The translations under genes and the position numbers were made by a program. This document shows positions 28,561 through 58,037 of a stretch of 64,000 nt of DNA, in pieces. Source of the DNA: Candidatus Binatia bacterium (lineage in GTDB: Bacteria > Desulfobacterota > Binatia > Bin18); the NCBI GenBank assembly GCA_022824615.1, contig JAJDZM010000093.1:654-64653 (forward strand), given 5' to 3'. The notes under the pieces are model-generated. The model was not told the DNA's origin. It ran no database searches and worked only from the letters and a program-made list of their open reading frames with translations. Numbering within the stretch: position 1 is the stretch's first letter; each line of letters starts with the position of its first letter.

Positions 28561-28610
28561 GAGAGGGAACGTGCCCAACCTTGGTCTATTGAAAGACACG
28601 TTCTCTCTTT
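28561..28610. repeat. approx 52-nt hairpin repeat, copy A (in ileS 5' leader region)
   Basis: GAGAGGGAACGTGCCCAACCttggTCTATTGAAAGACACGTTCTCTCTTT. Stem GAGGGAACG/CGTTC(T/C)CTC around loop CCAACC....CTATTGAAAGAC. Confidence 0.7.
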
Positions 28611-28691
28611 GCCGGCATGGACGGGCGGACTTGACCCTGTGTCACAGAAGGGCCATGAATAGACCATCAAGATCATGAGGAGAACGTACGG

Positions 28692-28916
28692 ATGGGCAAA
28701 CGGATGATGGTCAACTTCGGCAAGGAAGGCTTTCCGCAGTACGAGGAGGTTGAGGAGGAGGGCATGGCAAAACCCTGTGCGATGGGCCTGCCATGGGTGA
28801 ATCCCGATACTGTCAGAACGCTTGCGCTGAGGCAGGTCGGACGGACCGGCCCCAAAGGGGAGGCCCTGGAAGCTGCCTCAGCACCGCCCGAAACCGCGTC
28901 CGAGACGAACGAATAA
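28692..28916 (+). CDS. small hypothetical protein
   Basis: 74-aa ORF with acidic stretches. No family. Weak. Confidence 0.25.
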   Translation: MGKRMMVNFGKEGFPQYEEVEEEGMAKPCAMGLPWVNPDTVRTLALRQVGRTGPKGEALEAASAPPETASETNE

Positions 28917-28921
28917 ATCGT

Positions 28922-29254
28922 CTAGCCTCGGGGGAGACGCTTGGCTGTAGGCTTTGGCCGTTGACGTCGCTTCACAGGCTTCTGAGACGCCACGGCGAAA
29001 TCAGGGTCACCGTCCGGAGCTAACAACGGGTGCTGATGGAGACGTATCCCAAAAAAATAACAACAGGACTGGCTATCGAGGTTATTATCAAAGGTGCGCT
29101 GCTGACCATCCTCAAAGTTCACCCGCGCTAAGCAGGTCCCCCCTTCCAGGACCGATGTCATTTCCTCAACCACCTCACCCGTCCCCCATTCTTCATAGTG
29201 GCGATGGATCACATGATCCCCAACCCGGAGATACAAACGATGTTTGGCAGACAT
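28922..29254 (-). CDS. DUF3553-like small protein
   Basis: LYLRVGDHVIHRHYEEWGTGEVVEE....ARVNFEDGQQRTF resembles the DUF3553 pattern. Confidence 0.45.
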   Translation of the reverse strand: MSAKHRLYLRVGDHVIHRHYEEWGTGEVVEEMTSVLEGGTCLARVNFEDGQQRTFDNNLDSQSCCYFFGIRLHQHPLLAPDGDPDFAVASQKPVKRRQRPKPTAKRLPRG

Positions 29255-29363
29255 GTGGTGGCCTTACGGGCAAGTCGGATTGCGTTTGCAAGGGTTGTAT
29301 CTGAAAACGTGCAGCGATGGAAGCAAGCGATGAAAAAGCGACAGCGAGATCCACGCCGACGAT

Positions 29364-30239
29364 TCACGTCGAAAGCCCGCTATCCTGCAGAATAGATGTC
29401 TCCCTTCGGTAGGGGGCACGGAAAGAGACATTCTTTGCCCAGGCTGCAAGCGGCAGACCGCTTGTCCCGGAGCGCTCTGCCAGAGCGGCTCGCTTCCGTA
29501 TTAGCCTGGGGTCCAGGGAAACCGCATCACTGCCCATCACAACGACATTGCCACTCGGTACCGAGCAGGCAGTCGTATACCGGAAGGCCGCGGCAAACGT
29601 CCTGCGCGCGGTATCATACACTGGTGTAGAAGAGTGCAGGTTGGAAACGACCAGCCCGTGGGGACCCAGGCACGCACGGCATTCAGCGTAGAAATCGTAG
29701 GTCAAAAGATGGGGAGTAACCCCTTCGGCTCGGTAGGCGTCCAGCATGATAAGGTCGTAGGTTGTCCCAGCCGCTCGTGCGCGTACATACGACCTGCCAT
29801 CGGCAATCACAGCGCGCTGACGCTCGTCCGGGAAAAACCCAAAGAAGCGGGTAGCAATGTCAACAACGAGGGGATCAAGTTCAACGCTATCGAGTTGCGC
29901 GTTTTCAAAAACATGGTGCAATACCATTTGCAGCCGCCCGCCCCCAAGGCCGATCAAAAGAATACGCCGTGGTTGAGCACACCACACCAGGGCTAACACC
30001 ATAGCCTGAGTGTAAGGGGAGAGGAGGTCCAAGGGAGAGCGGGGGTCGAGCCGGGATTGGACTTCTTCAACGCGACTCTGCTGGTGTCGATAGCACAGCA
30101 GCAACTGATTATGCTTTCTGCGGATGACGACATGGTTGTAGGCAGATCGTCGCTCAAAGAGGACGCCCTGTGGAGAGCGGCGGAGTGGAGCGAGGCGACG
30201 GGTGATTGCCGCCAGATTGTGTTCTTGCCAGGGGGACAT
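29364..30239 (-). CDS. spermidine-synthase-family (polyamine aminopropyltransferase-like) protein
   Basis: RILLIGLGGGRLQMV ... VELDPLVVDIATRFFGF ... YDLIMLDAY matches the SAM-dependent spermine/spermidine synthase fold. Confidence 0.6.
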   Translation of the reverse strand: MSPWQEHNLAAITRRLAPLRRSPQGVLFERRSAYNHVVIRRKHNQLLLCYRHQQSRVEEVQSRLDPRSPLDLLSPYTQAMVLALVWCAQPRRILLIGLGGGRLQMVLHHVFENAQLDSVELDPLVVDIATRFFGFFPDERQRAVIADGRSYVRARAAGTTYDLIMLDAYRAEGVTPHLLTYDFYAECRACLGPHGLVVSNLHSSTPVYDTARRTFAAAFRYTTACSVPSGNVVVMGSDAVSLDPRLIRKRAALAERSGTSGLPLAAWAKNVSFRAPYRRETSILQDSGLST

Positions 30240-30306
30240 GCCTGAGTGGGGTCTGGATATTGGCTTGACTATTCGGGTCCAGGCCGGGCCTTATCTTCCC
30301 TAGCTC

Positions 30307-30726
30307 CTACCTGCTCTGGGTCGCAATAGCCAAACGACCGAGCCCTTCGGTGCGAGCCAGGTCCATGACCTGAACGACTCGATTATGGGTGACATCGCCG
30401 TCCGCCCGAATAACAAGTGTCACGTCTGCGCCTTGGCTCTTTTCGGCCTTAAAGCGGGCTTCGAGTTCGGCAATAGTCGTCGGTGTCTCGCCTAAGAAGA
30501 GTTGACCATCTTTCTTCAAGCTCACGCTCAGGCGTTTTTTTTCAGCCGGAGGTTTTGCCGATGCGGCCTTGGGCAGGCTCACATCGACCTGGCCTTCGCG
30601 TGTTTTCTGAAAGGTTGCCAGAAAGCTGAACGTGATGAAGAAGAAGATGAACATATTGATGATGATATCAGTGAGCGCCAGCGGCTCCATACTCGTCAAG
30701 ATTTTCGCTTTGCGCTTAAACTGCAT
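30307..30726 (-). CDS. exbD: biopolymer transport protein ExbD/TolR
   Basis: Single N-terminal TM (LTDIIINMFIFFFI) plus periplasmic ExbD domain. Overlaps exbB. Confidence 0.8.
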   Translation of the reverse strand: MQFKRKAKILTSMEPLALTDIIINMFIFFFITFSFLATFQKTREGQVDVSLPKAASAKPPAEKKRLSVSLKKDGQLFLGETPTTIAELEARFKAEKSQGADVTLVIRADGDVTHNRVVQVMDLARTEGLGRLAIATQSR

Positions 30727-31372
30727 GACGAGTTGGCTCCTGTAGCGGTACGGCCTCCGGGAGGGCTTCTTGCGCGGGCGTCCCGGTCAGTGCATCGAGG
30801 AGTTCTTCGGTACGCGTCTCGGTCAGACGGGTCAAACGTTGTATGCGTGAGGTCAGGTGGTTGTACAAAAGATAGTAAGGGATGGCGACCGTCAGCCCTG
30901 CCGCCGTGGTCAACATGGCCTTATAAATACCACCGGCCAGAACGCCAACGGTAATTTGGTCCCCCAGCGTCTCCCAACTCATAAAGGCTTCAACCAGGCC
31001 AATAATCGTACCCAGGAAGCCCAGCATGGGTGCGACCCCGACCACGCTTGCCAGGGCCGTCATATACGCCTCCAGCCCGGCCACCACCTCGCCTCCAAAT
31101 CGTTCCAGGCGTCGCGTCAGCTCCGTTCGTTCCTCAAAGCGATGCAGGAAGGCCGTCTCGAACAGTCGGCCGAGCGGCGTGTTGTGCTCGCGGCAAACCT
31201 GGAGGGCTGCATTCAGGGTGCCGTCTTGGTCAAGCTGGCCTCCAGATCCCTGAATGAGGAGGTGCAGGCGCTCGCACAGTCGATTGAGCTGCGAGCGAAA
31301 TCGCGCCAAGCTCCAAAACTTCGTAAGGACAATAGCCAGCGCGAAAATGGACAGGGCGATAATGAGATACAT
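30716..31372 (-). CDS. exbB: MotA/TolQ/ExbB proton-channel protein
   Basis: Three TM helices with conserved C-terminal TM2/TM3 region (GLLGTIIGLVEAF). Start MYLIIAL at 31372 (track start 31432 possible). Confidence 0.75.
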   Translation of the reverse strand: MYLIIALSIFALAIVLTKFWSLARFRSQLNRLCERLHLLIQGSGGQLDQDGTLNAALQVCREHNTPLGRLFETAFLHRFEERTELTRRLERFGGEVVAGLEAYMTALASVVGVAPMLGFLGTIIGLVEAFMSWETLGDQITVGVLAGGIYKAMLTTAAGLTVAIPYYLLYNHLTSRIQRLTRLTETRTEELLDALTGTPAQEALPEAVPLQEPTRHAV

Positions 31373-31594
31373 TATATTCCCGCCCTGGTCGATAAAATAC
31401 AGAATTCCCGGAGAGTCCACCTGTGTTGGCATAGCGCGGTATATGTAGCGGAGTTCCCCTCTGAGGGGAAGGGTAGCGTCCTTCGACTTCGCTCGGCTAC
31501 GCTCAGGATGCTCGGAGACAGAACGAAGGTTGAGACCTTTCCTTTTTTTTATCCGACTGGTAATCCGCAGAGAACGACCGGGAGTTAATACGCA

Positions 31595-31981
31595 ATGGGA
31601 AGAATAGTCGCAACAGTGGACATCGAGAATTTCTCCGAAGCCGGCTCGTCCATGAAACTGGACGCCTTGGTTGATACCGGAGCAAGCTATCTCACCTTAC
31701 CGTCACGCTGGAAGAGCCGGTTCGGCGCGTTTGCTTCGGAGGAGACGGTTGAACTGCAAACAGCGACTCAAGAAGCCGTTCAAGGAACAGTCTGCGGCCC
31801 GGTAAAAATCACCGTGGAAGGCTTTCGATCTATTTACAATGAAGTGCTGTTCATAGACATGAAGCCGGAGAACGGCGAATACGAGCCATTACTGGGCTAT
31901 ATCGCGCTTGAGCAATGCGGAGCGGCCGTCGATATGCTCGGCCACAGATTGGTACCAGTGAAATATATGGATGCGAAATAG
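31595..31981 (+). CDS. retropepsin-like (clan AA) aspartic peptidase
   Basis: LVDTGASYLTLP D-T/S-G-A catalytic motif. Approx 128 aa single-domain bacterial retropepsin architecture. Confidence 0.7.
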   Translation: MGRIVATVDIENFSEAGSSMKLDALVDTGASYLTLPSRWKSRFGAFASEETVELQTATQEAVQGTVCGPVKITVEGFRSIYNEVLFIDMKPENGEYEPLLGYIALEQCGAAVDMLGHRLVPVKYMDAK

Positions 31982-32009
31982 CACGAAACGACCTGAACAA
32001 GGAAATGTT

Positions 32010-32504
32010 ATGGCCGTTCCAGCAGCAAAACCACCACTCTCTGAGCACGACTACCATGCGTGGCTCCTTGAACAAGCGGCCCGTCTTCGGGCTCGTCAGT
32101 TTGACCAGATTGATTATGAGATGCTCGCGGAGAAGTTGGAAGACATGGGGCGGAGTGAACGGCGCGCAGTCGAAAGCCATCTGGAGAATCTTCTCATCCA
32201 CCTCTTGAAATGGGCCAAGCAAAAGCAACGTCGCTCAGGAAGCTGGCGAGACAGTATTGACAATGCGCGAGATGCGCTTGCCGACTTGCTTCAAGACAGC
32301 CCCAGTCTGCGCCCTCAGCTCCCAGAATTTGTCAAGCGTCAATATCCCCGCGCCCGCCGGAGCACCGCTAACCAAACCGGTCTGACAGTGACACGCTTTC
32401 CCGCTACCTGTCCCTTTCGCTTGGAAGACATTCTCGATGCTGAGTCCTTTTCTGAGACTCTGCGGAGAGGGGAAAGCCTGCGTCGTGCTTCTCGGGGATC
32501 GTAG
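32010..32504 (+). CDS. DUF29-family protein
   Basis: SEHDYHAWLLEQAARLRARQFDQIDYEMLAEKLEDMGRSERRAVESHLENLLIHLLKW closely matches the DUF29 consensus. Confidence 0.7.
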   Translation: MAVPAAKPPLSEHDYHAWLLEQAARLRARQFDQIDYEMLAEKLEDMGRSERRAVESHLENLLIHLLKWAKQKQRRSGSWRDSIDNARDALADLLQDSPSLRPQLPEFVKRQYPRARRSTANQTGLTVTRFPATCPFRLEDILDAESFSETLRRGESLRRASRGS

Positions 32505-32517
32505 ATGCCTGCGGGGG

Positions 32518-34059
32518 CTATATTTTGAGGTTTAGCTCGATGAAGCCGAAGTTGGCATCACTACCAGTATAGATGTGGTTGACGATACTGTCGCCAAACG
32601 CATGCGCAAAGAAGACGTGTACGTTAACATGCTCGTTGATCGTGTAGTTGAGGGTGGTTTCGATGATCTGGAACAGGTCACGCTTGCCAAAGACCGGACG
32701 GCCGACAAAGCCGAAGCCGGCCTGACGGTCTTCAAGGGTGGCACCCGCACCCTGGTACCACAGGTCATTCTTCTCGCTGACGCGAATATAGTGAAAGTCC
32801 GTACGCCAGACTAACCCTTTGAATGGACGTAGAATCAGCTGGAAGAAGATGTCTTCATTGTTCATCAGATTATAGAAGGTAGAAAACGAATAGACCCGAG
32901 CGGTTGGCAGCATCTGGAAAAAGGTATCGTGGTCGTTGTCGTTGGGGTCGTCGTCGCCCGAACTGCGGTTATACCCAATCCGGAACCAGGGCTTCCACGG
33001 CAATCCCTTGGGTTGCCAGCCGGCCTCGGCGGCAAACGCCCAGCCGTGATGATCCTGCCGGCCCCAGTCGCCGCCCTGCCCGATGCCCAAACCCATCAGG
33101 TCGATCGGTCCCGCGCCGGTCGGAATGACGTGGACCAGATTGCCACCATAGGCATGCACCGTGATATGACGCCGGTCGGTGTTACGCACCACGGCGGGCC
33201 GATTATCGGTCGGCCGCAGCCCGCGGCCGTCGGCATAGTAGATATAGAACAGCCGCGCGTCGCTCGTTTCCGCAAACGCCGGCTTTGTCACGTTGAACCC
33301 GGTGTAAAGGACGTCGATGTCGTCAATAGTCTTCACCCCGGCCAGGTCGAACCCGCCTTGGGTTGGATGGGAACCGTGGACGGTGAGGCTATACGCCCCC
33401 TTGGTGTAGCTGGCCGTAAAACCGTCGAAAGAGCGTCCGGTGTGCGACCAGGCAAAGGGGCCGATCATACGCTGCGATACGCGGAAGCGTTTGACCCAGT
33501 CAATCGTGGGGTCCTTGCTCATCACCTCCGCGCCTGCTGCGAATAGCAACCGCCCGCCTTTGAGCTTCAGCCCCGGTATCCCCAGCTTCTTGAGAGTCAG
33601 ATGCGCCTGCTTGAGAAAGACTACAGCATCGTTCTGCCGGCGATTATGGGCCAGGTAGACGTGCCCCAAACCGAATGCGCCTTGTGGGGCGGGGCCAACG
33701 GCGTCGTCGGGAAGCCCCATCACAGCCGTGTTTTGCGTCTCGACATACAGGTCAAAAGAGTCATCGGTCCACTTGAACCCCAGCTTGGCGACGGTGGCCG
33801 CATAGGCATACGAAGAATCGCCAGAGGTGCCCTCAAACCAGTCCCAGAATTCACCCCGTGTACGCAGGCTGGCCGAGAGCGACAGCTTCGTTGATATTTG
33901 GGAGAGCGGCAGTTCCGCCTTCAGCGGTGCAGGAGCCAGCAGGAGGAGGCATACTCCCGCCAACAATGCGCATCCCCATCGAGGCGCGCGGAATGTCTGA
34001 CAAATCATCTGATGGACCGTCTCAATGGCTTTCGCCATGGTGGTTTGATAGATACTCAC
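32518..34059 (-). CDS. outer-membrane beta-barrel, alginate-export (AlgE-like) family
   Basis: Signal peptide. Alternating beta-strand pattern with aromatic girdle. N-terminal SLRTRGEFWDWF and C-terminal ...FGFIELNLKI (terminal aromatic). Family call from memory. Confidence 0.5.
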   Translation of the reverse strand: MSIYQTTMAKAIETVHQMICQTFRAPRWGCALLAGVCLLLLAPAPLKAELPLSQISTKLSLSASLRTRGEFWDWFEGTSGDSSYAYAATVAKLGFKWTDDSFDLYVETQNTAVMGLPDDAVGPAPQGAFGLGHVYLAHNRRQNDAVVFLKQAHLTLKKLGIPGLKLKGGRLLFAAGAEVMSKDPTIDWVKRFRVSQRMIGPFAWSHTGRSFDGFTASYTKGAYSLTVHGSHPTQGGFDLAGVKTIDDIDVLYTGFNVTKPAFAETSDARLFYIYYADGRGLRPTDNRPAVVRNTDRRHITVHAYGGNLVHVIPTGAGPIDLMGLGIGQGGDWGRQDHHGWAFAAEAGWQPKGLPWKPWFRIGYNRSSGDDDPNDNDHDTFFQMLPTARVYSFSTFYNLMNNEDIFFQLILRPFKGLVWRTDFHYIRVSEKNDLWYQGAGATLEDRQAGFGFVGRPVFGKRDLFQIIETTLNYTINEHVNVHVFFAHAFGDSIVNHIYTGSDANFGFIELNLKI

Positions 34060-34272
34060 AGCTTCCCTCTCAAAATCCTCGATCGCTGAGTATGTCCCTG
34101 CGGGCTCGGGTAGTTACCGGAAGCGTTTGCCGAAGGTAATCCCGATGCCCAAGTGAGCAAAGCAGCGTCTGGGGCAGCTTGAGTTTCGTGAGCTAACCTG
34201 CACGTATGAGCGCCTGCATCTTTAGTGTAAGCACGCCAGAGCAAAACGCTCGATGGTTGCACACATCTGCGG

Positions 34273-34848: not shown

Positions 34849-34918
34849 TAACCTCTCCTTCTACAGATTCAGACTTTGCTCTTTCAGTATCCGACAAAAG
34901 CGAAAAGCTTCGCCTGAC

Positions 34919-36401: not shown

Positions 36402-37378
36402 TTAGGGTGATAAATCTATGGATTCACCAACCAGCGTCTTGATGAATGCGACGATCGCCTCCTTGTCCCCGTCGGACGCCTCACGCCCCAACTGGAACTC
36501 GAACATGACGTCGACCGCATCACGCAGGGTTACAGCGCTTCCGTCGTGAAGATAGGGCTCGGTCAGGATCGCCATTCGCAGGCTTGGGACCTTGAAGACA
36601 TGACGGTCAGCGGCCTGTCCGGTAACATTGTAGCGGCCGAGGTCGGTATCGGTGATGTCGTCCCGATTCTTGAAGTAATCGTTGACCACACCGAAAACCC
36701 GGAACATGTTGCCTCCCGCATTCACGCCTTGGTGACAGGAGGCGCAACCGTAGCTCTTGAACAGGGCATAGCCGTGCTTCTCCAGCGTGCTCAGGGCTGT
36801 GTCATCACCCCCTAGATACTGGTCGAAGCGGCTGTCCGGGGTGATGAGAGATTTGATAAATGCACCGAGCGCGTTCTTGATGTTCTTGCGATTAATACCG
36901 TCTGGATAGAGGAGCTTGAAGCGGTCGGGGTAGCTTTCGTGCTGGTAGAACTTGGAGACGACCGTCGGCCATGTACTTCTCATATAGATCGGCGACTGCA
37001 CATGGATGTCAATCAGGTCTTCGACCGTCTTCGCTCGTCCGTCCCAGAACTGCTTAAAGTTCAAACCGGAATTAAACACAGTCGGGGTGTTGATGACTCC
37101 TGACCTCCCCCCAATCCGGATGGAAACCTTACGGCCATCGTCACCACCAGAGCCGAGATTGTGACAACTGTGGCATGATACGGTATTGTCCTTTGATAAT
37201 CTCGGGTCATAGAACAGCATCCGTCCGAGCATCAGCTTTTCGACATTAACCTCAATCTCTTCTAGAATCGGCTTGATGGGCTCCTCAGCACGCACATCGC
37301 TGACAAAGGCGAAACAGACGACCGCAAATACTATCCAGGTAATGCGAATGCTCTCGAGAGTCAATTTTTGAGTGGACA
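36402..37378 (-). CDS. di-haem cytochrome c peroxidase (CCP/MauG family)
   Basis: Two CxxCH sites (CHSCHNLG, CASCHQG) and conserved FKVPSLRM...PYLHDGS. Start at ATG 37378 (MSTQKL...). The N-terminal extension in the track is unlikely. Confidence 0.85.
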
Positions 37379-37614
37379 TCGGAGAGGTTACCCCTGATAA
37401 GATGGGCTTCGGCCGAGGCCAAAATAAAAATGAGGGAGGAAATTTATTCGGGTCGCACTCAGCATCTGGCCAAGAAGAATAAAACCGGCAGGATAGTGGC
37501 GCGTTGGTAGCATATTTGTCCGAGGATTGTCTAGGTGTTGTGGGCTTTTCTTTTCTCATAGCAGCAAAAGCCTCCTTCGAGTCTGCTTCATAAACTGTTA
37601 TAAAGGACCCTGCC

Positions 37615-38166
37615 ATGAGAAACTGCTTAAAAATCACCCACTCGATCACGGTCATGCTTTCCCGCTGTCGTCTTTGCCTGATTGTACTCGGGACCTGCGT
37701 CTTATCCGTTTTTCCAGAGTTCCTTCTTCAGGCTCAGCCGCAGAATGTGGAAGTCCAGGTCCGGCCATTAAACGCAATAGCCCCGGAGATTGTCGTCCCG
37801 CCGGGCAGAGGTTCGTCCGCCATGCGCAGGACCACGGACGACATGCGTAGAGCCGCGGACGACAGGTGGGAGCGCGTTCGGAACAGTGAAAACTTTGTGG
37901 TGGAAGTAAAGATTCACAACGGAACTGACCGCTCCTATCTGATTAAAGCCAATAAGGTCTCGTTACGCGCCGAGTCTGGCGAACGCGTGAGACCGCTGGA
38001 AGCAAGCGAAGACGGTCCGACTCCTGTCCTTACGGATCAGACCATTGCGCCCGGCGCGGAGATCCGTGGCTATCTCTCTTTCCCACCTGGCTCCTATACG
38101 GGTGCGCGGGGGTTTCTTATTGAAGAGCGCACCCAGGCGAACGAGGGGTTCAGTATCGACTTTTAG
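37615..38166 (+). CDS. secreted hypothetical protein
   Basis: Hydrophobic N-terminus. No family recognised. Confidence 0.35.
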   Translation: MRNCLKITHSITVMLSRCRLCLIVLGTCVLSVFPEFLLQAQPQNVEVQVRPLNAIAPEIVVPPGRGSSAMRRTTDDMRRAADDRWERVRNSENFVVEVKIHNGTDRSYLIKANKVSLRAESGERVRPLEASEDGPTPVLTDQTIAPGAEIRGYLSFPPGSYTGARGFLIEERTQANEGFSIDF

Positions 38167-38208
38167 GCGAGCCCGTAGCGCTACACCCAGACTCTGCCCA
38201 TTCCTGAC

Positions 38209-38260
38209 GAAAAGAGGAAACGTGTCCAACCACCAGCTATTGAAAGACCCGTTCCCTCTT
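38209..38260. repeat. approx 52-nt hairpin repeat, copy B (overlaps the stop codon of the molybdoenzyme gene, between convergent genes)
   Basis: AAAAGAGGAAACGTGTCCAACCaccaGCTATTGAAAGACCCGTTCCCTCTTT. Stem AAGAGG(G/A)AACG / CGTTCCCTCTT. Confidence 0.7.
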
Positions 38261-40567
38261 TATTTCCGGGGGAACGAACGCGGTCACGGGCGGTGGGTCG
38301 TCCCGGTAGCGTTCGACCTGAACCAAAGTCGTGTGCGCACTGGGCCCCTGACCCAGCTTTGACGTGCCTTTGTCCAGAGTGAGCACATTGGGGTTGCCGT
38401 GTTTTTCCAATGACCCCGGCAATCCCGGTTCGAGCGGGTCATACCAGGCTCCGGTAGGAAGCTGGACCACGCTCGGTTGGATATTGGCGGTAATGCGCAC
38501 CCCGGCCAGACATTGCCCCCGGTCATTAAAGACCCGGACAAGATCGCCTTCACTGAGCCCACGCGCTTGGGCATCGACCGGATGGATCCATAGGGGTTCG
38601 CGTTCGGCGACTTTCGAACTGCGGCTGACCGACCCCTGGTCGAGTTGGCTGTGCAGGCGCCCGACCGGCTGATTGGAAATCAGATGGAGGGGGTAGGATA
38701 CGGCTTTCTCACTTCCCAGCCATTCGGCCGGTTCCATCCAGGTCGGGTGAGGTGGACAATCGTCGTAGTGATACGACGCAATCCGTTCTGACCAGAGCTC
38801 AATCCTCCCGGACGGCGTGTCTAACGGATGGGCATCGGGATCAGACCGAAAAGCGGACAGAAAAGGCCGGGGCTCAGATGGGGGTGGCAGTTCGAAATAA
38901 CCGTCCGTCCAAAACTGCTCAAAGTCAGGCAGAGTAAAACCATATTCCTTCGCCCGCTCGCGGGAGAGCGCATAGAGGTGGCGCAGCCAACCGGCTTCGT
39001 CCCGTCCTTCGGTAAACCCTTCCCGAAAGCCGAGGCGTTCGGCCAGGTCCGCAAAAATATCATGATCGTTCCGTGCCCCGCCGACCGGCTCCATCGCCTG
39101 TTTATTGGCCACGATAAAGCCGTCGCGGGGCGTGCAGACCATATCGTTGCGTTCGAGCGGGGTCGTTGCCGGGAGGATGATATCCGCGTGGCGCGCCATG
39201 GGCGTCCACCATGGCTCATGGACGATAATGGTTTCCGGCTTTTGCCAGGCCCGGAGCAGGCGGTTCAAGTCCTGATGGTGATGGAAGACGTTACCGCCGA
39301 CCCAGTAGATCAGGCGAATATCAGGATAGGTCGCGCGGCGTCCGTTATAGTCGAATTCCGTGTTCGGATTCAGCAACAGGTCGGCAATCCTGGCAACCGG
39401 GATGACATCGTCGACCGGGTGGACACAGCGGTCGAGTGTGGCCCAGGGAATGCGAGAGGACGGGTTTCCGACCGTAGCGACGGACGAGTAGCCATAGCCA
39501 AACCCTCCGCCCGGGAGTCCGACCTGTCCCAACATGGCGGCCAGGGTGATGGCCATCCAATAGCTCTGCTCGCCATGATCCGCCCGCTGGAGGGACCAGG
39601 CTATCGTGATCAGCGTGCGCTTGGCGGCCATCCGTCGGGCCAGCGTGGTAATCGTCTCAGCCTCCAGGCCGGTGATAGCGGCCGCCCAGTGCGCATCCTT
39701 GGGCTGCCCATCGTTTTCGCCCATGAGATACGGTCGAAATTTTTCAAAGCCGACACAGTGTCGCGTCAGGAATTCAAAATCGGCCAGCCCTTCTTTGACC
39801 AGAGTATGAGCCAGACCGAGCATCAGCGCCACGTCGGTATTGGGGCGCGGGGTCAGCCATTCGGCCCGCAGAAAGTCGGCCGCGTCGTTTTTCACCGGAC
39901 CGATGTTCAGGAATTCGACACCCGCCTGCCGACATGCCTCCAGGCCCTCTCGAGTTCGATGCCGGGCCACTCCGCCATAGGCCACCTGCGCGTTTTTGAG
40001 GGGCATTCCGCCAAATGCCACCACAAGCTCGGAATGTTGGGCAATCGTCTGCCACGAGGCCTGCTCGACCAGCAGACGAAAAAAATTCCCGGCAATATAG
40101 GGCATGGCCACATCGGCCGCGGCATGACTGTAGGTGTTGATGGAACGGACAAAGCCACCGAAGAGATTGAGGAAGCGATGCAGTTGTCCTTGGGGGAAAT
40201 GGAAGGAACCGGCACTGCCCCAGCCGTACGAGCCGGCATAAATCGTCCGGTTGCTGAATGTGCTCCGGATACGTTCGAGTTCAGCGGACACAAGATCAAG
40301 CGCCCGCTCCCAACTGAGCGCGACAAAAGGCTCGCCCCCACGAGTACCACCGCCCGGGCCGTTCCTGAGCCAGCCTTCCCGCACCATAGGTTGGCGGATG
40401 CGGAGCGCGTCATTGACCGCCTCGACATAGGAGCGCCCCAGAGGAGAGGGCTCCGGGTCCTCGGGCGTGGCATCCATGGCGACCAAACGACCCTTCATGA
40501 CCCGAGGCGCATAGCCGCCCCAGTGGAAGGCGGAACGTGGATTTACGGCGTTGTCAGCGATTTTCAT
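38237..40567 (-). CDS. molybdopterin S-/N-oxide reductase, BisC/TorA-like (no N-terminal Fe-S cluster)
   Basis: 776 aa. N-terminus ...HWGGYAPRVMKGRLVAMD...IRQPMVREGWL...FVALSWERALDLV...IYAGSYGWGSAGSFH aligns with biotin-sulfoxide / TMAO reductase family. Cys-cluster motif absent. Confidence 0.85.
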   Translation of the reverse strand: MKIADNAVNPRSAFHWGGYAPRVMKGRLVAMDATPEDPEPSPLGRSYVEAVNDALRIRQPMVREGWLRNGPGGGTRGGEPFVALSWERALDLVSAELERIRSTFSNRTIYAGSYGWGSAGSFHFPQGQLHRFLNLFGGFVRSINTYSHAAADVAMPYIAGNFFRLLVEQASWQTIAQHSELVVAFGGMPLKNAQVAYGGVARHRTREGLEACRQAGVEFLNIGPVKNDAADFLRAEWLTPRPNTDVALMLGLAHTLVKEGLADFEFLTRHCVGFEKFRPYLMGENDGQPKDAHWAAAITGLEAETITTLARRMAAKRTLITIAWSLQRADHGEQSYWMAITLAAMLGQVGLPGGGFGYGYSSVATVGNPSSRIPWATLDRCVHPVDDVIPVARIADLLLNPNTEFDYNGRRATYPDIRLIYWVGGNVFHHHQDLNRLLRAWQKPETIIVHEPWWTPMARHADIILPATTPLERNDMVCTPRDGFIVANKQAMEPVGGARNDHDIFADLAERLGFREGFTEGRDEAGWLRHLYALSRERAKEYGFTLPDFEQFWTDGYFELPPPSEPRPFLSAFRSDPDAHPLDTPSGRIELWSERIASYHYDDCPPHPTWMEPAEWLGSEKAVSYPLHLISNQPVGRLHSQLDQGSVSRSSKVAEREPLWIHPVDAQARGLSEGDLVRVFNDRGQCLAGVRITANIQPSVVQLPTGAWYDPLEPGLPGSLEKHGNPNVLTLDKGTSKLGQGPSAHTTLVQVERYRDDPPPVTAFVPPEIKRERVFQ

Positions 40568-40651
40568 GAGTCGGGACTTTCCTCTGAGACAGAAGCGCGA
40601 AGGGGCACGCGAGCGTACCCCCTGGGAAGATGACAGAGAACGAAGAGGCGC

Positions 40652-43063: not shown

Positions 43064-43197
43064 TCCTTTTTTGACCCTGTCCCTTATGTTATGGCCTTGC
43101 GTTCAAAGCTCCCGCCGTTCATCCCCCCCTGCACGAAGAGAAGCGCTTGCCTACAGGGTTTTCTGGTATCACGCTCTATCAACCACCGGACTGCATT

Positions 43198-44439: not shown

Positions 44440-44474
44440 GACCTTCCCCTCCTTCAGTGATTGCGACGGACTCC

Positions 44475-45525: not shown

Positions 45526-45557
45526 TCTGAACCCTCCTCCTGTGTGTGCGTTTTTTC

Positions 45558-46160
45558 CTATACCGCTTCTCTCTCCGAAGAGGAGACGCGCATTGGTCCA
45601 TCTGCCTTCAATTCCCGACCGTTCTGTCCATCGATTGTGGCCAGGAATTCCTCAAGCCAATGAATTTCTCCTTCCAAGTACGTCAGTCCATGCGCAATAA
45701 TCTGGGCTTGCGGAAGTGTGACACCCTGCTCATTCCAGTAGGTTTGCTGCTCGGTGACCCAGGCCAGACGCCGGTGGGTCCACTCAAGTTGGCTCTGGAG
45801 TGCATCACGCAGTTCCGAGCCGTCAAGCAGATGACTAAAGGCAAGGGCGGCGTTCAAGGGGTCAAAGACTTTGGTTCGCTCTTTGGTGTCGAACAGTTGA
45901 CGCCGCAACTCGGCCCGCAAATAGTCGTGGCCGGCCGGCGTGATTTGGTAGACCTGCCGAGCCGGATAGTTGCCCTTTTGCTCGACCTTGGTCTTTTCCA
46001 CATAGCCGGCCTGTTCAAGCTGCCCGAGATTATAGTAGAGCGAGCCACCACTCAGGTTGATATACTTGGCGTACAGCCGGTGCTCGACCTCCTGCCGCAG
46101 TTCATAACCATGAAACGGCTTCTCGGATAACAGCCCTAAAATGACAAGTTGAACACTAAT
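45558..46160 (-). CDS. PadR-family transcriptional regulator; 5' end uncertain (no canonical start codon upstream of the HTH)
   Basis: Winged-helix PadR signature VILGLLSEKPFHGYELRQEVE...YYNLGQLEQAGYVEKTKVEQKGNYPARQVYQITPAGH is encoded upstream of the track start (a GTG at 46001). Frame is open back to a TAA at 46182-46184 with no ATG/GTG/TTG; ATT at 46160 or CTG at 46133 are the only candidates. Confidence 0.5.
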   Translation of the reverse strand: MSVQLVILGLLSEKPFHGYELRQEVEHRLYAKYINLSGGSLYYNLGQLEQAGYVEKTKVEQKGNYPARQVYQITPAGHDYLRAELRRQLFDTKERTKVFDPLNAALAFSHLLDGSELRDALQSQLEWTHRRLAWVTEQQTYWNEQGVTLPQAQIIAHGLTYLEGEIHWLEEFLATIDGQNGRELKADGPMRVSSSEREAV

Positions 46161-46292
46161 GTCACACCCCCATAAACTAGTTTATTCAGACTAATTAAAG
46201 AAAGTGGAAGGTCAAGTCAAGAGGTTTGTCATTCTTTTTTTCGACGATGAAAAGTTTTTATCCTTACAAAAGCCAAGCCAGACTCTTCATGG

Positions 46293-47033
46293 TCAATCAG
46301 CATCAATAATGCCCCGCCCCCGCAACAAGTTGAGAATAATATCCAGGCTGTGCTCTCGCAGGTGAATCTTGAGTTGATCGTAGAGGGTAAAATTGGCGAG
46401 GCGGAGAAAGGGTCGCCCGTGAACAAAGTCAATAATATTGATACAGCCGAAGTCCTGCTCGATATTAAAAATCCGTCCCTGCGTAACCCCTGTAGCATGA
46501 GCCAAAAAAGCGTTGTTCACGCCCCCGTGCGCAACAAGGAGAATGGTCTGCCAATCATCTTTGGCCAAGAGGGTCTGGAGGAGGTGCCCGGCACGGGCAT
46601 AGACCTGGCGGAAACTCTCTCCGCCCAGATAGGATTCATCCCAGTCAGAGTCCGTATTCTTAAAGAATGCCTGAATCTCCTTAAATATATCGGCCAGGCT
46701 TTTTTGGGCTAAGACCGTGTCACTCGGGATGATCTCGCTCAGTTCCGGCGCGACCTGAATGTCCAGCTCTTTTTCCTTGGCAATGACCTGGGCGGTGTCA
46801 TACGCCCGTTCAAGCGGGCTGGCGTAAATCGCATCAAGCGGCACCCCCCGAAAGAGCAAAGCGACCGCTGCGACCTGCTCCTGCCCCCGTTCGGTCAGGG
46901 CCCCATTACCCAGCGCCCCCTCGTTTGCCACACGTTGATACAGGGTTTCCCCATGGCGCATCAGGTAGATGCGGCGCCCGTCCATCAGCCGGCTGTCCAT
47001 GCTATTTCTTGGCGAACGGCTTGTCACGCTCAC
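46293..47033 (-). CDS. histidine phosphatase family (phosphoglycerate-mutase-like) protein with C-terminal extension
   Basis: RIYLMRHGETLYQ (RHG catalytic motif). Alternative starts 46999 / 46985. Confidence 0.7.
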   Translation of the reverse strand: MSVTSRSPRNSMDSRLMDGRRIYLMRHGETLYQRVANEGALGNGALTERGQEQVAAVALLFRGVPLDAIYASPLERAYDTAQVIAKEKELDIQVAPELSEIIPSDTVLAQKSLADIFKEIQAFFKNTDSDWDESYLGGESFRQVYARAGHLLQTLLAKDDWQTILLVAHGGVNNAFLAHATGVTQGRIFNIEQDFGCINIIDFVHGRPFLRLANFTLYDQLKIHLREHSLDIILNLLRGRGIIDAD

Positions 47034-47817
47034 GCAGGGCTTCTTTGAGACCGCGTTCCATCATTTTCTTGACCTCATTTTTGACTGTTACGGTCTGATG
47101 GGCGATTACGTCGAATTCCGTTGCCGACTGTTCAGCCGCATACAGACCCATGGCCTCAAAAAAGCGATTGGTCGCCGCCTTATGGAGCGTCAGCAGGTCA
47201 ACCGGCACCGCGGCAACACGACGGGCGTAACGCAGCACCTCGTCCTCCAACTCCTGTTTCGGATAGACGTGGTTAATCAGGCCATTTTCCAGCGCCTCAG
47301 CCGCGGTCATGGAATCCCCGGTAAAGAGAAACTCTTTGGTCTTGCGCATCCCCATCAGGTAGGGCCACATGGCCAGCGACGGGAGCACTCCAAGCGAGCG
47401 TCCGGCGGGGTGGCCGAACTGGGCATCGTCTGCTGCAAAGACCAAGTCACAATGCCCGACAAACTCCGTCGCTCCGGCCAAACAATAGCCGTGGACTTGG
47501 GCAATCGTCGGTTTTGGCAGGTTCCATAGACGCTGCCAGCGGGCAACGATCTTGCGCAATCCCCAGCGGTCACTGGTGACGGTAAAGCCTCCCCCCGGCC
47601 CCGAAACCGGCTGGAGATCGTAGCCCGCGCAGAAGGCCCGCCCGGCCCCACGAATGATCAGGACACTGGCATCATTGTCCGTTTCAAACTCCTCCAGGGC
47701 CGCGTCCAACTCGGACAAGAGTTGGCGACTCATGGCGTTCAGTTTCTCCGGACGATTCAGCGTCATGCGGACAATCTTGTCTTCCACCTGCTCGTAGATA
47801 ATGGCCTCATATCCCAT
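47002..47817 (-). CDS. enoyl-CoA hydratase/isomerase family protein
   Basis: Crotonase fold signature LNRPEKLNAMS...VLIIRGAGRAFCAGYDL. Confidence 0.85.
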   Translation of the reverse strand: MGYEAIIYEQVEDKIVRMTLNRPEKLNAMSRQLLSELDAALEEFETDNDASVLIIRGAGRAFCAGYDLQPVSGPGGGFTVTSDRWGLRKIVARWQRLWNLPKPTIAQVHGYCLAGATEFVGHCDLVFAADDAQFGHPAGRSLGVLPSLAMWPYLMGMRKTKEFLFTGDSMTAAEALENGLINHVYPKQELEDEVLRYARRVAAVPVDLLTLHKAATNRFFEAMGLYAAEQSATEFDVIAHQTVTVKNEVKKMMERGLKEALRERDKPFAKK

Positions 47818-48006
47818 CGTGGAGTCTCCTTTTCCTGCTGGCAGGGAGAATAGAAGGTCTGGCTTACCACAGGCGACCGCGAGTGCATAGAGAGAAACGG
47901 CAGGCCATCCTCACACTCCCGCAAGCGTCCTTGTCCCGTATTCTTCTTCTGCGTACAGTTGCGGGGAAAGAGGCGAGCGCATGTTGTTCTACAGCCGGAG
48001 GTTCTT

Positions 48007-49077
48007 ATGTCAACGGATGTAACCGCACTCCTTACCCGCGCCGTCCAATCAGGCGCTTCTGACATCCACCTCAGCAGTGGAGCACCACCCATGATTCGGC
48101 TCGACGGGATCATGAAGCAACTTGAGCACGCCTCGCTGTCCCGGGATGAAGTCCACGCTCTCGTGTACGACATTATGGATGAGGGTCAGCGAAAGATGTT
48201 CGAGGAGAGTCTCGAACTCGACTTCTCCTGTGACCTGGGTGACGCGGGGCGCTTTCGGGTGAATGTCTTTATGCAGCAACATGGCGAGGGTGCGGTGTTT
48301 CGGGCCATTCCAACGCAGATTGCCTCGTTCGAGGAACTCGGGCTACCGTCGATTCTCAGCCAACTGTGTACGCGGAGAAAAGGGCTGATCCTGGTGACCG
48401 GTCCAACCGGCTGTGGAAAATCGACCACCCTGGCTGCCATGGTCAATCATCTCAACGAGACCGTCGAAGGTCACATCGTCACGATTGAAGATCCCATCGA
48501 ATTCACTCATCAGTCCAAGAAATGCCTCGTCAATCAGCGCGAACTCGGCGTTCACACCCACTCGTTTGCCAATGCGCTGCGGGCGGTCTTACGCGAAGAT
48601 CCCGACATTATTCTGGTTGGCGAAATGCGCGACCTGGAAACCATCCAACTCGCTCTCACGGCCGCCGAAACCGGTCATCTCGTTTTGAGTACTTTACACG
48701 CGCCAGGCGTGGCGCAGGCCGTTGACCGGATTATCGACGTCTTTCCAGCCGCTCAGCAACCTCAGATTCGAACTCAGTTTGCCGACTCGATTGAAGCCAT
48801 CGTCACCCAGACTTTATGTCAAAAGAAAGGCGGGGGGCGCGTCGCGGCCTTGGAAATTCTGATGGGCAGCACGGCAGTCCGCACACTGATCCGCGAGGGT
48901 AAGGGGCACCAAATCCTCTCAGCCCTCCAGGTTGGCCAAAAGGACGGGATGCAGACCATGGACCGGGCGCTTGTTGACCTCGCTACACGAGGGCTTATTA
49001 CGCAGGAAGAAGCGCAGGCCAAGAGCCCGACCCCGAACCTCTTTGGTCAGAGTGGCCGCGCAGTCCTACGCAGATAG
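48007..49077 (+). CDS. pilT: type IV pilus retraction ATPase PilT
   Basis: Walker A GPTGCGKST, Asp/His boxes, IREG motif (AVRTLIREGKGHQI). Start ATG 48007. Confidence 0.9.
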   Translation: MSTDVTALLTRAVQSGASDIHLSSGAPPMIRLDGIMKQLEHASLSRDEVHALVYDIMDEGQRKMFEESLELDFSCDLGDAGRFRVNVFMQQHGEGAVFRAIPTQIASFEELGLPSILSQLCTRRKGLILVTGPTGCGKSTTLAAMVNHLNETVEGHIVTIEDPIEFTHQSKKCLVNQRELGVHTHSFANALRAVLREDPDIILVGEMRDLETIQLALTAAETGHLVLSTLHAPGVAQAVDRIIDVFPAAQQPQIRTQFADSIEAIVTQTLCQKKGGGRVAALEILMGSTAVRTLIREGKGHQILSALQVGQKDGMQTMDRALVDLATRGLITQEEAQAKSPTPNLFGQSGRAVLRR

Positions 49078-49188
49078 CGATCTTGCACAGCGACGGGTGT
49101 GAGACTGAACATGCGTGAATATTTTGCAGCGGTCTTCACGTCTCCGTCGGGTAAGGGAGCTGGAATCAGCACTGCTGGATTTGTCTGG

Positions 49189-49512
49189 TTAGCTGCCGCT
49201 TCTATCAAACTCCAGCCGGCCGGCTTGTTGACAGAGTTCGGCCAAAGCTTCTTCGGCTTTTTGATACATGCCTTGCAGCGTTCTGTCTTTCCTTATCAGC
49301 GGATGGCTGCCAAGAAATTGATAGACGTAATCCAGGGCGACAGACGCTCGGTCCATAAGTTCGAAATAATGGCCCTCATTTATTGCCTCGTCCGTATCGT
49401 TAGGAAAAAGGGTTGATCCTCCGTCTGTTTCTTTTCCTTCAAGGATCGGACAACGGAACGCATGAAGAAAATACCTTATGTCTTCTCGCAGTTCCTCAAC
49501 CGTTTCACCCAT
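49189..49512 (-). CDS. hypothetical protein
   Basis: 107-aa ORF co-directional with ispD. Protein-like composition. No family. Confidence 0.35.
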   Translation of the reverse strand: MGETVEELREDIRYFLHAFRCPILEGKETDGGSTLFPNDTDEAINEGHYFELMDRASVALDYVYQFLGSHPLIRKDRTLQGMYQKAEEALAELCQQAGRLEFDRSGS

Positions 49513-49589
49513 AGGTGAGACTGGTTCTTGTGTCCAACCTTCAAATTATCCTCATTGTAGTGGCTGAATCTTAAACGGTTCTTCTCCAT

Positions 49590-50285
49590 TCAGGACGAGC
49601 TCCCAATCTGCAGCACTGCCTGGGCGAGAGCCAGGTCATCCGGTGTTGTAATCTTAAAATTGAGCGCGTCGCCGGGAACGAGGCGGACGGGCCGGCCCAT
49701 TTGCTCGACCAGGCTGGCATCGTCCGTTCCCGTGATACTCCGTTGCTGCGCCCAGCGGTGGGCTGCTCGAATTACTTCGACCCGGAATGTCTGTGGGGTT
49801 TGCGCCAGCCACAGGTCGTGCCGGGAGACCGTCTCACGGATCGTGTGCTGTGCGTCGGCCCGTTTAACGGTATCGCGGACGGGGGTCGCCACAACCGCGC
49901 TGCCCGCTTTGGCCGCCGCGTCAATACTGCGCTGAATCGCCTCCACCCTGATAAACGGCCGGGCCGCGTCATGAATCACCACGACCTCGCACTGCGTCTC
50001 AAGCGCGGCCAAACCGTTCCGGACCGAATCCTGCCGCTCCGCTCCTCCGTGGACAACGGTAATCGGTTGTGGCCAGGGACCGTGCGTGTGGAGTACCTCC
50101 CGGCAAAGAGCCTCGCGTTCGGCAGCAACGACAACGACTATGCGCCGGACCGTCTCAATGGAGGCAAAACGCCGCAGGGTATGCACGAGAATCGGACTCC
50201 CGGCAATAGACAGAAACGGTTTGGGCAGCTCGCTTTGCAGCCGCGTGCCTTTTCCCGCGGCAACAATGACGACATTGACGTGCAT
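49590..50285 (-). CDS. ispD: 2-C-methyl-D-erythritol 4-phosphate cytidylyltransferase
   Basis: VVIVAAGKGTRLQSELPKPFL signature. Start at ATG 50285 (MHVNV...). Confidence 0.85.
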   Translation of the reverse strand: MHVNVVIVAAGKGTRLQSELPKPFLSIAGSPILVHTLRRFASIETVRRIVVVVAAEREALCREVLHTHGPWPQPITVVHGGAERQDSVRNGLAALETQCEVVVIHDAARPFIRVEAIQRSIDAAAKAGSAVVATPVRDTVKRADAQHTIRETVSRHDLWLAQTPQTFRVEVIRAAHRWAQQRSITGTDDASLVEQMGRPVRLVPGDALNFKITTPDDLALAQAVLQIGSSS

Positions 50286-50292
50286 ACGGCGC

Positions 50293-50730
50293 TTACTCTT
50301 GTGGCGGAGCTTCAGCCAGGTCTTCAACCAGAATGACCTTGCCATGCCCGATTGAGGACCCGACAAATCCGGCCACCCGCGCGAGAGAATATTTTGAGCG
50401 AAAGAGATCGTGGACCCGTTCGCTCTCAGCCGTGTCTGTCATAAATTGTGCCCTTCCGGTGAGGGTGAGTTGGCCGATTTTCAACTGCATCTGTGGGTTT
50501 TTTTGCAGGTTGCGATACCAATGGGTTTTCCCCTCTTGTCCGGATTGGATATACAAAGCTCCCTGGTCGTAGACAAACCAGATCGGTTTTGTCCGCGGCT
50601 TGCCACTCTTCCGTCCTATAGTGGTAATTTCGAGCGTTGATTCATTGGCGACCTGGGCCAGGGCGTCCTGAAGTCTGTTCTCCTGAGCGTGGCCGAGTGT
50701 TCCCATGAACAGGCTCACAAAAAGGAGCAT
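50293..50730 (-). CDS. DUF385 / PNPOx-like (deazaflavin-dependent nitroreductase family) protein with N-terminal signal-like segment
   Basis: TTIGRKSGKPRTKPIWFVYDQGALYIQSGQEGKTHWYRNLQKNPQMQLKIG matches the DUF385 core. Start at ATG 50730 (MLLFVSLFMG...). The N-terminal part of the track ORF is just the hairpin repeat translated. Confidence 0.55.
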   Translation of the reverse strand: MLLFVSLFMGTLGHAQENRLQDALAQVANESTLEITTIGRKSGKPRTKPIWFVYDQGALYIQSGQEGKTHWYRNLQKNPQMQLKIGQLTLTGRAQFMTDTAESERVHDLFRSKYSLARVAGFVGSSIGHGKVILVEDLAEAPPQE

Positions 50731-50762
50731 CAGCCCGGCCCGGTGACGTTCCCGTGCCGTAA

Positions 50763-50816
50763 AGAGGGAACGTGTCGCCTTCTGTCTATCTGTTGAAGGA
50801 CCCGTTCCCTCTTTGT
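50763..50816. repeat. approx 52-nt hairpin repeat, copy C (5' leader of the DUF385 gene)
   Basis: AAAGAGGGAACGTGTCgccttctgtctatcTGTTGAAGGACCCGTTCCCTCTTT. Perfect 11-bp stem AAGAGGGAACG/CGTTCCCTCTT. Confidence 0.7.
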
Positions 50817-58029: not shown

Positions 58030-58037
58030 GGAAAGGT

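Follow-up and report, generated by a model that had tools for sequence, protein, structure and literature searches.

The Rickettsia palindromic elements (RPEs) are palindromic selfish repeats of ~100-150 bp with reported CGTC ends, which lie in frame in unrelated housekeeping genes of obligate intracellular Rickettsia without destroying the protein, and for which no dedicated transposase is known (PMC10969869; PMC3733652). The repetitive extragenic palindromes (REPs) of E. coli and Pseudomonas, together with the REP doublets forming hairpins (REPINs), are described in the available part of their literature as short hairpin repeats in hundreds of copies, with inverted arms around a spacer, that form lineage-restricted, long-lived populations and cause no target duplication. 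Their definition includes a mostly extragenic location; they have a GTAG tag, which the REP-associated tyrosine transposase (RAYT) cleaves, and flank a RAYT gene. GTAG- or CGTC-tagged REPs inside genes, including DNA repair genes, occur in Opitutus terrae, Xanthomonas and Thioalkalivibrio (PMC3733652); such intragenic REPs encode ~20-30 extra residues, and the CGTC class is without a dedicated transposase (Di Nocera et al. 2013, PMC3733652). The subject of the present work is a hairpin repeat of about 54 nt, three copies of which (A, B and C) lie in a 64,000-nt stretch of the Candidatus Binatia contig JAJDZM010000093.1; this stretch is called the window, and all window coordinates refer to it.

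The original prediction, made from the letters of the window, had considered a small MITE/REP-like element (MITE, miniature inverted-repeat transposable element), a protein-binding site, or a cis-regulatory RNA motif. With a probability of roughly 85%, the hairpins belong to a family of tiny palindromic mobile DNA elements, REP- or RPE-like, that is restricted to one lineage, a clade of Candidatus Binatia. The family is previously undescribed, no paper linking Binatota with such repeats having been found in the literature; the kind of bacterial selfish DNA is already known.

The repeat family in Candidatus Binatia

A scan of GTDB species-representative genomes with the pattern AGAGRRAACGTG-N15-45-CGTTYYCTCTT returned at least 112 loci, nearly all of them, among the matches listed, from ~20 assemblies labelled Candidatus Binatia or Binatota. 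Relaxed searches of the 8-kb loci around the matches listed, a sample of 952 kb that represents ~1 Mb of the ~100 Mb of host genomes (~1%), yielded 182 distinct copies, so that the further copies which had been proposed as a check do exist in related genomes. The window is 90-94% identical at the DNA level to several Binatia assemblies. Complete Binatia chromosomes with the element include OZ242288.1, OZ243979.1, OX638322.1, OY729511.1 and OY763426.1. The density is about one copy per 13-21 kb, taken from the extra copies per locus or from the window with its three copies in 64 kb, and a genome of 5 Mb would by extrapolation hold a few hundred.

The family has the form AAAGAGGAAACGTGTCC-[~20 nt]-GGACACGTTTCCTCTTT, with perfect terminal inverted repeats of 17 bp around an asymmetric, variable spacer, and the consensus of 130 aligned copies reads nAAAGAGGAAACGTGTCCAGCnTnT......TATTGGAGGACACGTTTCCTCTTTn. 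A length of 54 nt, or 18 codons, is found in 64% of copies. The earlier remark that a conserved loop is unusual for terminators was right as such, but family-wide the loop is the most variable part of the element.

Neither viral contigs nor plasmids gave a match, and 37 metagenomic ileS loci of more distant relatives (~210 kb) were free of the element; the latter absence indicates that the family marks a sub-clade and not the whole phylum. The genome OZ219926.1 (L056, L073, L091, L106, L108), labelled Thermodesulfobacteriota, carries the element at sites orthologous to those in Binatia metagenome-assembled genomes (MAGs), for instance the same insertion in MnmG; for this reason it is taken as Binatia-like, and it is probably a Binatia genome under another label. 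Matches in an Acidobacteria genome (L018) and in a 'delta proteobacterium' (L055) have unrelated loops, look like chance, and were set aside.

Some elements stand in adjacent or closely spaced pairs (L052 3008-3114; L009/L065/L083, with two copies ~100 nt apart), and one back-to-back pair lies inside a single long open reading frame (ORF) upstream of a formamidase domain. The sole identical non-orthologous pair (L013, 6478 and 7310) is in opposite orientations, 830 nt apart.

The boundaries of the three window copies (Table 1) were set via homology to the family ends AAAGAGG...CCTCTTT, and the loop is on the + strand in each. A profile hidden Markov model gave exactly these three matches in the 64-kb window (E ~1e-11 to 1e-12). 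A covariance model run with filters off returned the same three at E ~1e-11 to 1e-12, the next match having E 0.3, and the + strand beat the other strand by 11-20 bits for each copy. With <=3 mismatches allowed, a 49-nt consensus matched A and B, where 0.00 matches were expected from 100 shuffles. Chance is thus excluded, and the three hairpins exist with coordinates that had been given correctly to 1-3 nt; the gene contexts had also been stated as they are, with A upstream of ileS, B over the stop codon of a BisC-like gene between convergent genes, and C at the 5' end of a DUF385-type ORF.

The stem quoted in the original prediction is exact in C (AAGAGGGAACG...CGTTCCCTCTT), whereas A (GAGAGGGAACG...CGTTCTCTCTT) and B (AAGAGGAAACG...CGTTCCCTCTT) are each off by one non-Watson-Crick position, and the loop core CCAACC....CTATTGAAAGAC, held to be shared by all three, is common to A and B while C carries another loop, GCCTTCTGTCTATCTGTTGAAGGAC. 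RNA folding, which had been suggested for all copies, gave a long stable hairpin on either strand, with -14.6 to -26.5 kcal/mol and z scores of -3.5 to -5.0. As DNA the window copies fold with -7.5 to -14.6 kcal/mol, compared with -18.4 kcal/mol (z -8.5) for the family consensus, and these weaker folds identify them as slightly degraded family members.

Table 1. Positions in the window of the three element copies, of an empty target site, and of an unoccupied unit of a second repeat (^ marks the insertion point)
Feature	Position	Strand	Remarks
Copy A	28560..28610	+	51 nt; arms 28560-28573 and 28597-28610
Copy B	38211..38261	+	51 nt
Copy C	50761..50814	+	54 nt
Empty target site	40541..40542		L054 ortholog (3227-3280) holds a 54-nt copy exactly there
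Unoccupied unit of second repeat	62478..62514	+	CCCTCTTGGGAGGG^GTGGCCGAAGGCCGGGGTGGGTA

Insertion sites and loop inversion

Four clean pairs of filled and empty sites were found, in which exact units of 51-54 nt with the ends AAAGAGG...CCTCTTT are present or absent and no target-site duplication is seen. Copy B fills a site that is empty at the ~90% identical locus L054 (GGCGA^ATTTCC). A copy in L054, in turn, corresponds to the empty site of the window given in Table 1 (GGATTT^ACGGCG). The second copy in MnmG of L041 has an empty counterpart in L073, and the copy of L006/L082 has one in L037.

The first two pairs concern one and the same gene, the molybdopterin oxidoreductase ORF 38237-40567 (minus, BisC-like), which converges with ORF 37615-38166 (+). 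Copy B holds the TAG stop codon of this ORF (38237-38239) together with its last 7 codons, such that the protein ends in ...PPEI-KRERVFQ* with the element and in ...PPEI-RQE* without it, in L054. The new stop is the TAG within the loop motif CAATAG, and copy B has thus been inserted in place of the final three codons of the molybdoenzyme. At the other end of the gene, the copy of L054 lies in frame, 9 codons into the ORF (GTGGATTT^ACGGCG in the window, GTGGATTC[AAAGAGG...CCTCTTT]GCGGCG in L054), and the resulting N-terminus reads MKIADNAAKRKRVPHLPVEGGHVSSLNPRSAFHWGG. Copy A is likewise absent from the ileS upstream region in 13/13 relatives examined, among them L133, whose IleRS is 97% identical and whose flanks are near-identical. 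Of the 90-97% identical genomes, the MKWU01 assembly is without copy A.

At 110 unique non-mosaic sites, G is found at position -5 in 53% (p 3e-7) and C at +5 in 51%, while A at -6 and T at +6 occur in only 4% each. The bias of the flanks is mirror-symmetric, with C at -4 and T at -3 on the one side and G at +4 and A/G at +3 on the other. Empty sites keep G-5/C+5 at 6/8 positions (p 0.009), from which it follows that the signal, approximately GCTNN^NNAGC, is a target preference and not part of the element sequence. Insertion therefore favours a weakly palindromic target, plus a hot spot in a second repeat family described below.

A further property of the element was revealed by orthologous pairs, defined as having 100-nt flanks >=75% identical on both sides: in 8/46 of them one spacer is the reverse complement of the other, with no change in the flanks. 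Such a result would be expected if the arms of an extruded hairpin recombined or served for template switching. As loops flip in place, the loop orientation is no record of the orientation of insertion.

Copies inside protein-coding genes

ORFs outside the Pfam-checked examples were taken from a simple ORF caller based on codon usage (86% coding), so that the intragenic fraction is approximate. With this caller, 27 of 116 unique sites, about a quarter, are deep in an ORF (start >=90 nt and stop >=60 nt away), where the element is read in frame as 17-18 extra residues. A further 17 sites lie within ORF ends and 21 (~18%) overlap them; 50 (~43%) are intergenic, namely 16 in divergent, 26 in tandem and 8 in convergent spacers, and one, at a locus edge, is unclassified. 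Across the family no association with particular gene classes was found.

The hosts are, according to Pfam, genuine housekeeping genes, namely those of MetH, with two copies in interdomain linkers, MnmG/GidA, also with two, a UvrD-like helicase, MrpA, a MiaB-like radical-SAM enzyme and a CoA-transferase III. When Binatia MnmG is aligned with E. coli MnmG (PDB 3CP2), two gaps coincide exactly with RGNVSSNRHEMPDTFPLQ and KRGDVSSNRHEMLDTFP, and the alignment of Binatia MetH with Thermus MetH (8SSC) shows gaps at both element positions; in both proteins the element thus appears as clean insertions of 17-19 residues. The peptide expected from the element in MnmG, MetH or MrpA is exemplified by RGNVSSNRHEMLDTFPL.

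The length is a multiple of three at 86% of genic sites and at 57% of the others (Fisher p 0.001), and five of the six frames are free of stop codons in 70-83% of copies. Genic copies are read in three frames and in either orientation. Most often the reading is xRGNVS...DTFPLx, in 22/41 deep genic copies, a frequency explained by the palindrome, which gives the identical RGNVS...DTFPL frame in both orientations. Among deep genic copies one loop orientation prevails (20 vs 7, p 0.02); as the other orientation gives a more hydrophobic peptide, this bias fits filtering at the protein level.

Copy C is a case in point. It lies in frame as codons 8-25 of ORF 50293-50835 (minus), which encodes a protein of the F420H2_quin_red/PNPOx type, and its translation is KEGTGPSTDRQKATRSLF. 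It is preceded by a conserved MNMT(H/Q)CD start with a Shine-Dalgarno-like GGAAGG and followed by the signal-peptide-like segment RERHRAG-LMLLFVSLFMG. The copy is at the same site in L005, L085, L095 and L099, i.e. in all five orthologous loci, where it is diverging; L085 has lost 9 nt of one arm, a multiple of three, and the reading frame is open through the element in 5/5 orthologs. An internal ATG/GTG start is also conserved in the ORF. The view that the repeat had been wrongly translated into the DUF385-type ORF is made doubtful by the open frame and the conserved upstream start with its Shine-Dalgarno-like sequence, and further so by the in-frame elements in MnmG and MetH; judged from these sequence features, copy C is likely translated. 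Copy C is old and decaying, and it lies in the N-terminal region, probably a signal peptide, of an F420-type reductase.

Mobilisation and origin

The MITE/REP-like option is strongly supported by the hundreds of copies, by their occurrence in both orientations, by presence/absence polymorphism, and by insertion into coding sequence. The element would be non-autonomous, its movement depending on a chromosomal enzyme that acts in trans after recognising the hairpin or the inverted ends. Copies would survive where they do little harm, in spacers, protein termini, linkers and surface loops, because their length is mostly a multiple of three and most of their frames are without stops. As targets are not duplicated, the evidence leans towards a single-strand or IS110-like mechanism and away from cut-and-paste by a DDE transposase, and a tentative best guess for the enzyme would be a single-strand, hairpin-recognising one (HUH/RAYT- or IS200/IS605-like) or one similar to IS110. 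That a transposition or recombination system of an undescribed type moves the element is less probable; in its favour, neither RAYT/REP nor IS200/IS605 nor a DDE-MITE fits all properties of the element, which is a hairpin of 18 codons, enters the middle of a palindromic target without duplicating it, has a hot spot between two hairpins of another repeat, and routinely colonises essential genes in a free-living phylum.

Several observations weigh against a mobile family of this kind, or at least against its present activity. A tblastn search of the 952 kb with E. coli RayT (MG1655) gave a best E of 1.1, and no ORF in this sample has the motif HUH...Y..NP. In the sampled loci the search for a full-length parental insertion sequence (IS) produced only 4 chance-like single arms outside complete elements, and the proteins present in several copies per genome were tandem paralogs, none of them transposase-like. 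It should be noted that, with only ~1 Mb of ~100 Mb of host genomes searched, the absence of an enzyme is weak evidence. The symmetric target of the element has no parallel in IS200/IS605, which do not use one.

Furthermore, non-orthologous copies from the same genome resemble one another hardly more than copies from different genomes do, with one identical pair; most copies are accordingly old, and the case for current activity depends on a few polymorphic sites, some of them perhaps precise deletions and not insertions. A recent burst was rejected on the basis of the same comparison. The site of copy A is not clean, 62 nt in the window standing against 6 nt in L133 (T + element + GCCGGCATGG in the former, CTCGAA in the latter). 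Finally, the sampling favours copies with intact arms, and the crude ORF caller blurs the share of intragenic sites.

A true REPIN or REP family mobilised by a dedicated RAYT would account for two inverted arms around a spacer that form a long hairpin, for the lack of target duplication, and for a population that is lineage-restricted, mostly old and vertically inherited. This origin is unlikely, since the consensus has neither a GTAG nor a CGTC tag, many copies are intragenic, the arms are not themselves palindromic, and the sampled 952 kb contain no RAYT.

It is distinctly improbable that the element is an IS-derived MITE whose 17-bp terminal inverted repeats are bound by a DDE transposase that moves it. 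The perfection of these repeats and the dispersal of a small element in both orientations would suit it, but target-site duplications are missing at the four clean insertion sites, and the sample holds neither a longer element with the same ends nor a multi-copy transposase-like protein.

An exapted function of the REP type, kept by selection, is held to be just as improbable. E. coli REPs have been reported to serve the host as stabilisers of mRNA 3' ends, as terminators or attenuators, or as sites for nucleoid or topology proteins (Di Nocera 2013, PMC3733652), and the large intergenic share of the Binatia sites, including tandem and convergent spacers, together with the strongly conserved arm sequences would be in keeping with such roles. 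On the other hand, no T-run follows the stem, the consensus ending in TTT only, and copy A has no terminator-like site; metH, mnmG and uvrD-like ORFs accommodate a 17-bp hairpin; and divergent spacers, which hold promoters, contain no fewer unique sites than convergent ones (16 vs 8). Moreover, copies at orthologous sites are decaying, one example being copy C in L085, and the conservation of the arms is in part due to ascertainment. The narrower candidate of an intrinsic terminator is not supported, given the lack of a T-run, the lack of a terminator-like site at copy A, and the copies in ORFs and divergent spacers.

Stem covariation and the region upstream of ileS

In the alignment of 130 copies, 93.7% of the cells of the 17-pair stem are paired, compared with 42-60% in slid controls, a high value that is partly due to ascertainment. 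The compensatory changes which had been proposed as a test were found in nine stem pairs, where two-sided changes occupy 44 cells against 14 +/- 3 in shuffles (0/500 reach the observed number); these double changes were not favoured by the search patterns used. Examples are A-T/G-C/T-A at one position and AGAAG...CTTCT. No signature of an RNA strand accompanies them, as G-U does not exceed A-C on the strand defined by the loop (57 vs 83) or, where the direction of transcription is known, on the sense strand (64 vs 78). At tandem intergenic sites the orientation is the same as that of the genes in 15 cases and opposite in 11 (p 0.56). The stem is maintained at the level of DNA, not of RNA.

These results bear on the idea of a cis-regulatory RNA, for instance a leader of ileS and of the reductase gene, that folds in the mRNA. 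In its favour, A and C are each found close to the 5' end of a minus-strand gene, RNA folds of the hairpin are stable for either strand, and the stem covaries. The idea is nevertheless very unlikely: copy A is missing upstream of ileS in the 13 relatives mentioned above and lies beyond the block conserved there, the two orientations are equally common in tandem spacers, and G-U is not preferred over A-C on the sense strand. Copies inside unrelated ORFs and loops that flip in place argue in the same direction, as does the absence of any Rfam match at the gathering threshold or at E up to 10. The ileS leader suggested in the original prediction is therefore not upheld, no link to a gene class and no bias of orientation having emerged. 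A T-box, which had been sought for ileS in vain, or another known ileS leader was ruled out, since Rfam gave 0 matches for the whole window at gathering thresholds and, in a search upstream of ileS with E values of up to 10, noise only (a plant miRNA model, 15 bits).

Copy A is situated 76 nt upstream of the ATG of IleRS at 28483 (IleRS 25346-28483, minus strand), in the divergent intergenic region between this gene and the conserved 74-aa ORF 28692-28916 (+). An exact-sequence look-up of this IleRS returned no record. A block of ~45 nt in this region (window ~28517-28557; in minus-strand sense CCCTCTAGCMAAA-N-CCTCAGTCKATAGCCTAGA) is kept in 13 Binatia relatives with IleRS identities of 75-97%, amid a hypervariable spacer, and copy A lies 2 nt beyond it. 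The block has no match in Rfam and, judging from its conservation, may serve as a promoter or as a leader specific to ileS; if it holds the ileS promoter, copy A is outside the leader altogether. A scan for promoter and terminator consensus sequences around copy A found nothing and no terminator-like site. Copy A is a recent insertion just upstream of a conserved ileS block, and there is no evidence of a regulatory role for A, B or C. The 74-aa ORF (MGKRMMVNFGKEGFPQYEEVEEEGMAKPCAMGLPWVNPDT...) is kept in sequence and position in all relatives examined and belongs to no Pfam family.

Lastly, a selected peptide module xRGNVS...DTFPLx, to which the DNA palindrome would be incidental, can for practical purposes be dismissed in spite of the frame shared by many deep genic copies, given that the intergenic sites and those that only overlap ORF ends lie outside its reach, that three frames and both orientations are in use, and that the insertions sit in linkers of unrelated enzymes.

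A second repeat family and other features of the window

The hot spot for insertion of the palindromic element is a second repeat of ~45 nt, ...CCCTCnnnnGAGGG^GTG[GCCGAAGGCC]GGGGTGGGTT, with the pattern (A/G)TC-CCCTCYnnGGAGGG-GTG-(GCC-GAAG-GCC or CCGCG-nnn-GCGGC)-GGGGTGGGTTCC. It forms two mini-hairpins with covarying stems, and inverted pairs are frequent, giving mosaics of ~200 nt with a T-run. The 952 kb of related genomes contain 65 units, 24 of which carry a nested 54-nt element at the fixed position ^. In the window the second repeat is found at 62410-62514, inside a crudely called ORF (62239-63999, +); it also occurs in L014, L044, L101 and many other loci.

Two arrays of 9-nt units were noticed in the window. 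One, at 54206-54291, is a tandem array of about nine units (TTGGGTCTR / TGGGGTCTG) in a convergent intergenic region of 650 nt; the other, 40 kb away in intergenic DNA (13798-13900), is a related palindromic array of the same 9-mers, with arms of 62 nt that are 82% complementary. The arrays look iteron-like or protein-binding-like. The long convergent intergenic region at 53651-54303 marks a break in the alignment with orthologs (360 nt in the window vs 85 nt in L085); L085 has a 54-nt element at the left edge of the equivalent region, where the window is without one; within the same region lies a CCCTCTCCCCTGGAGGGAGAGGG hairpin at 53886-53908. In addition, 36424-36851 and 58587-59014 are inverted matches of 428 nt with 73% identity, which reflect the paralogous genes 36402-37655 (minus) and 58026-59297 (plus), whose proteins are >=50% identical.

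Significance and relation to known systems

For the annotation of Binatia MAGs, the 54-nt units translate into apparent 18-residue insertions, altered protein termini and shifted calls of starts and stops, as exemplified by the C-terminus of the molybdoenzyme and the N-terminus of the reductase, and the element can also be mistaken for a regulatory RNA. The dozens of genic copies amount to natural experiments on positions at which proteins tolerate insertions, such as the linkers of MetH and the loops of MnmG. Insertion without duplication, the palindromic target and the frequent in-place inversion of the loop provide handles for finding the enzyme and for studying the formation of hairpins or cruciforms in vivo. 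If the system were of an undescribed type, in-frame insertion of peptides by mobile DNA could be studied outside Rickettsia, with Binatia as a tractable natural case. The interest of the family is moderate and lies in the very small size, in the frequency in essential genes of a free-living phylum, and in the duplication-free insertion at a palindromic target; selfish palindromes in housekeeping genes, a phenomenon of the Rickettsia type, thereby extend to an uncultured soil phylum that is free-living and found worldwide, where the element is much smaller.

In chloroplast non-coding DNA, 'flip-flop' inversions of hairpin loops are known. There, as in the Binatia element, the spacer between short inverted repeats inverts in place among close relatives, but the genome is of another type and the Binatia case is that of a dispersed bacterial repeat. 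Nesting at a fixed position in another hairpin repeat has a counterpart in mosaics of the bacterial interspersed mosaic element (BIME) type and in IS110/IS1111 members inserted in REPs, e.g. ISPpu9, as far as the available part of the literature describes them; the inserted unit in Binatia is, however, only 54 bp long and encodes nothing. Bacterial MITEs (Correia/NEMIS, ERIC, RUP, BOX) are also non-autonomous, have terminal inverted repeats and are sometimes intragenic with open frames (PMC10969869), but they usually measure >=100 bp and cause target-site duplications, while the Binatia element is half that size and causes none.

The tagged intragenic REPs introduced at the outset share with the Binatia element the placement of palindromes inside genes. 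They are dimers of 20-40-bp units, in contrast to its single untagged 54-bp unit, and its intragenic share appears much higher than theirs. With the REP/REPIN-RAYT systems, so far as the available accounts go, it has in common the formation of hairpins, the copy number, the restriction to a lineage and the absence of target duplication, and two 17-nt inverted arms with a ~20-nt spacer fit the outline of a REPIN. Yet its consensus AAAGAGGAAACGTGTCCAGC..TATTGGAGGACACGTTTCCTCTTT is without GTAG, CTAC, CGTC or GACG, the flanks show the logo GCTNN, its arms are not hairpins themselves and single arms were not found alone, and with 27/116 unique sites deep in ORFs and another 38 at or overlapping ORF ends it is not extragenic. 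From the RPEs, with which it shares the in-frame residence in unrelated housekeeping genes and the lack of a known dedicated transposase, it is set apart by its 54 bp, its free-living soil host, the absence of CGTC and a seemingly different sequence. Thus, the missing GTAG/CGTC tag and the sites inside genes separate the element from REPs, its size and host from RPEs, and the missing duplication from MITEs of the DDE type; it stands nearest to the RPEs in lifestyle and nearest to the REPs and REPINs in form.

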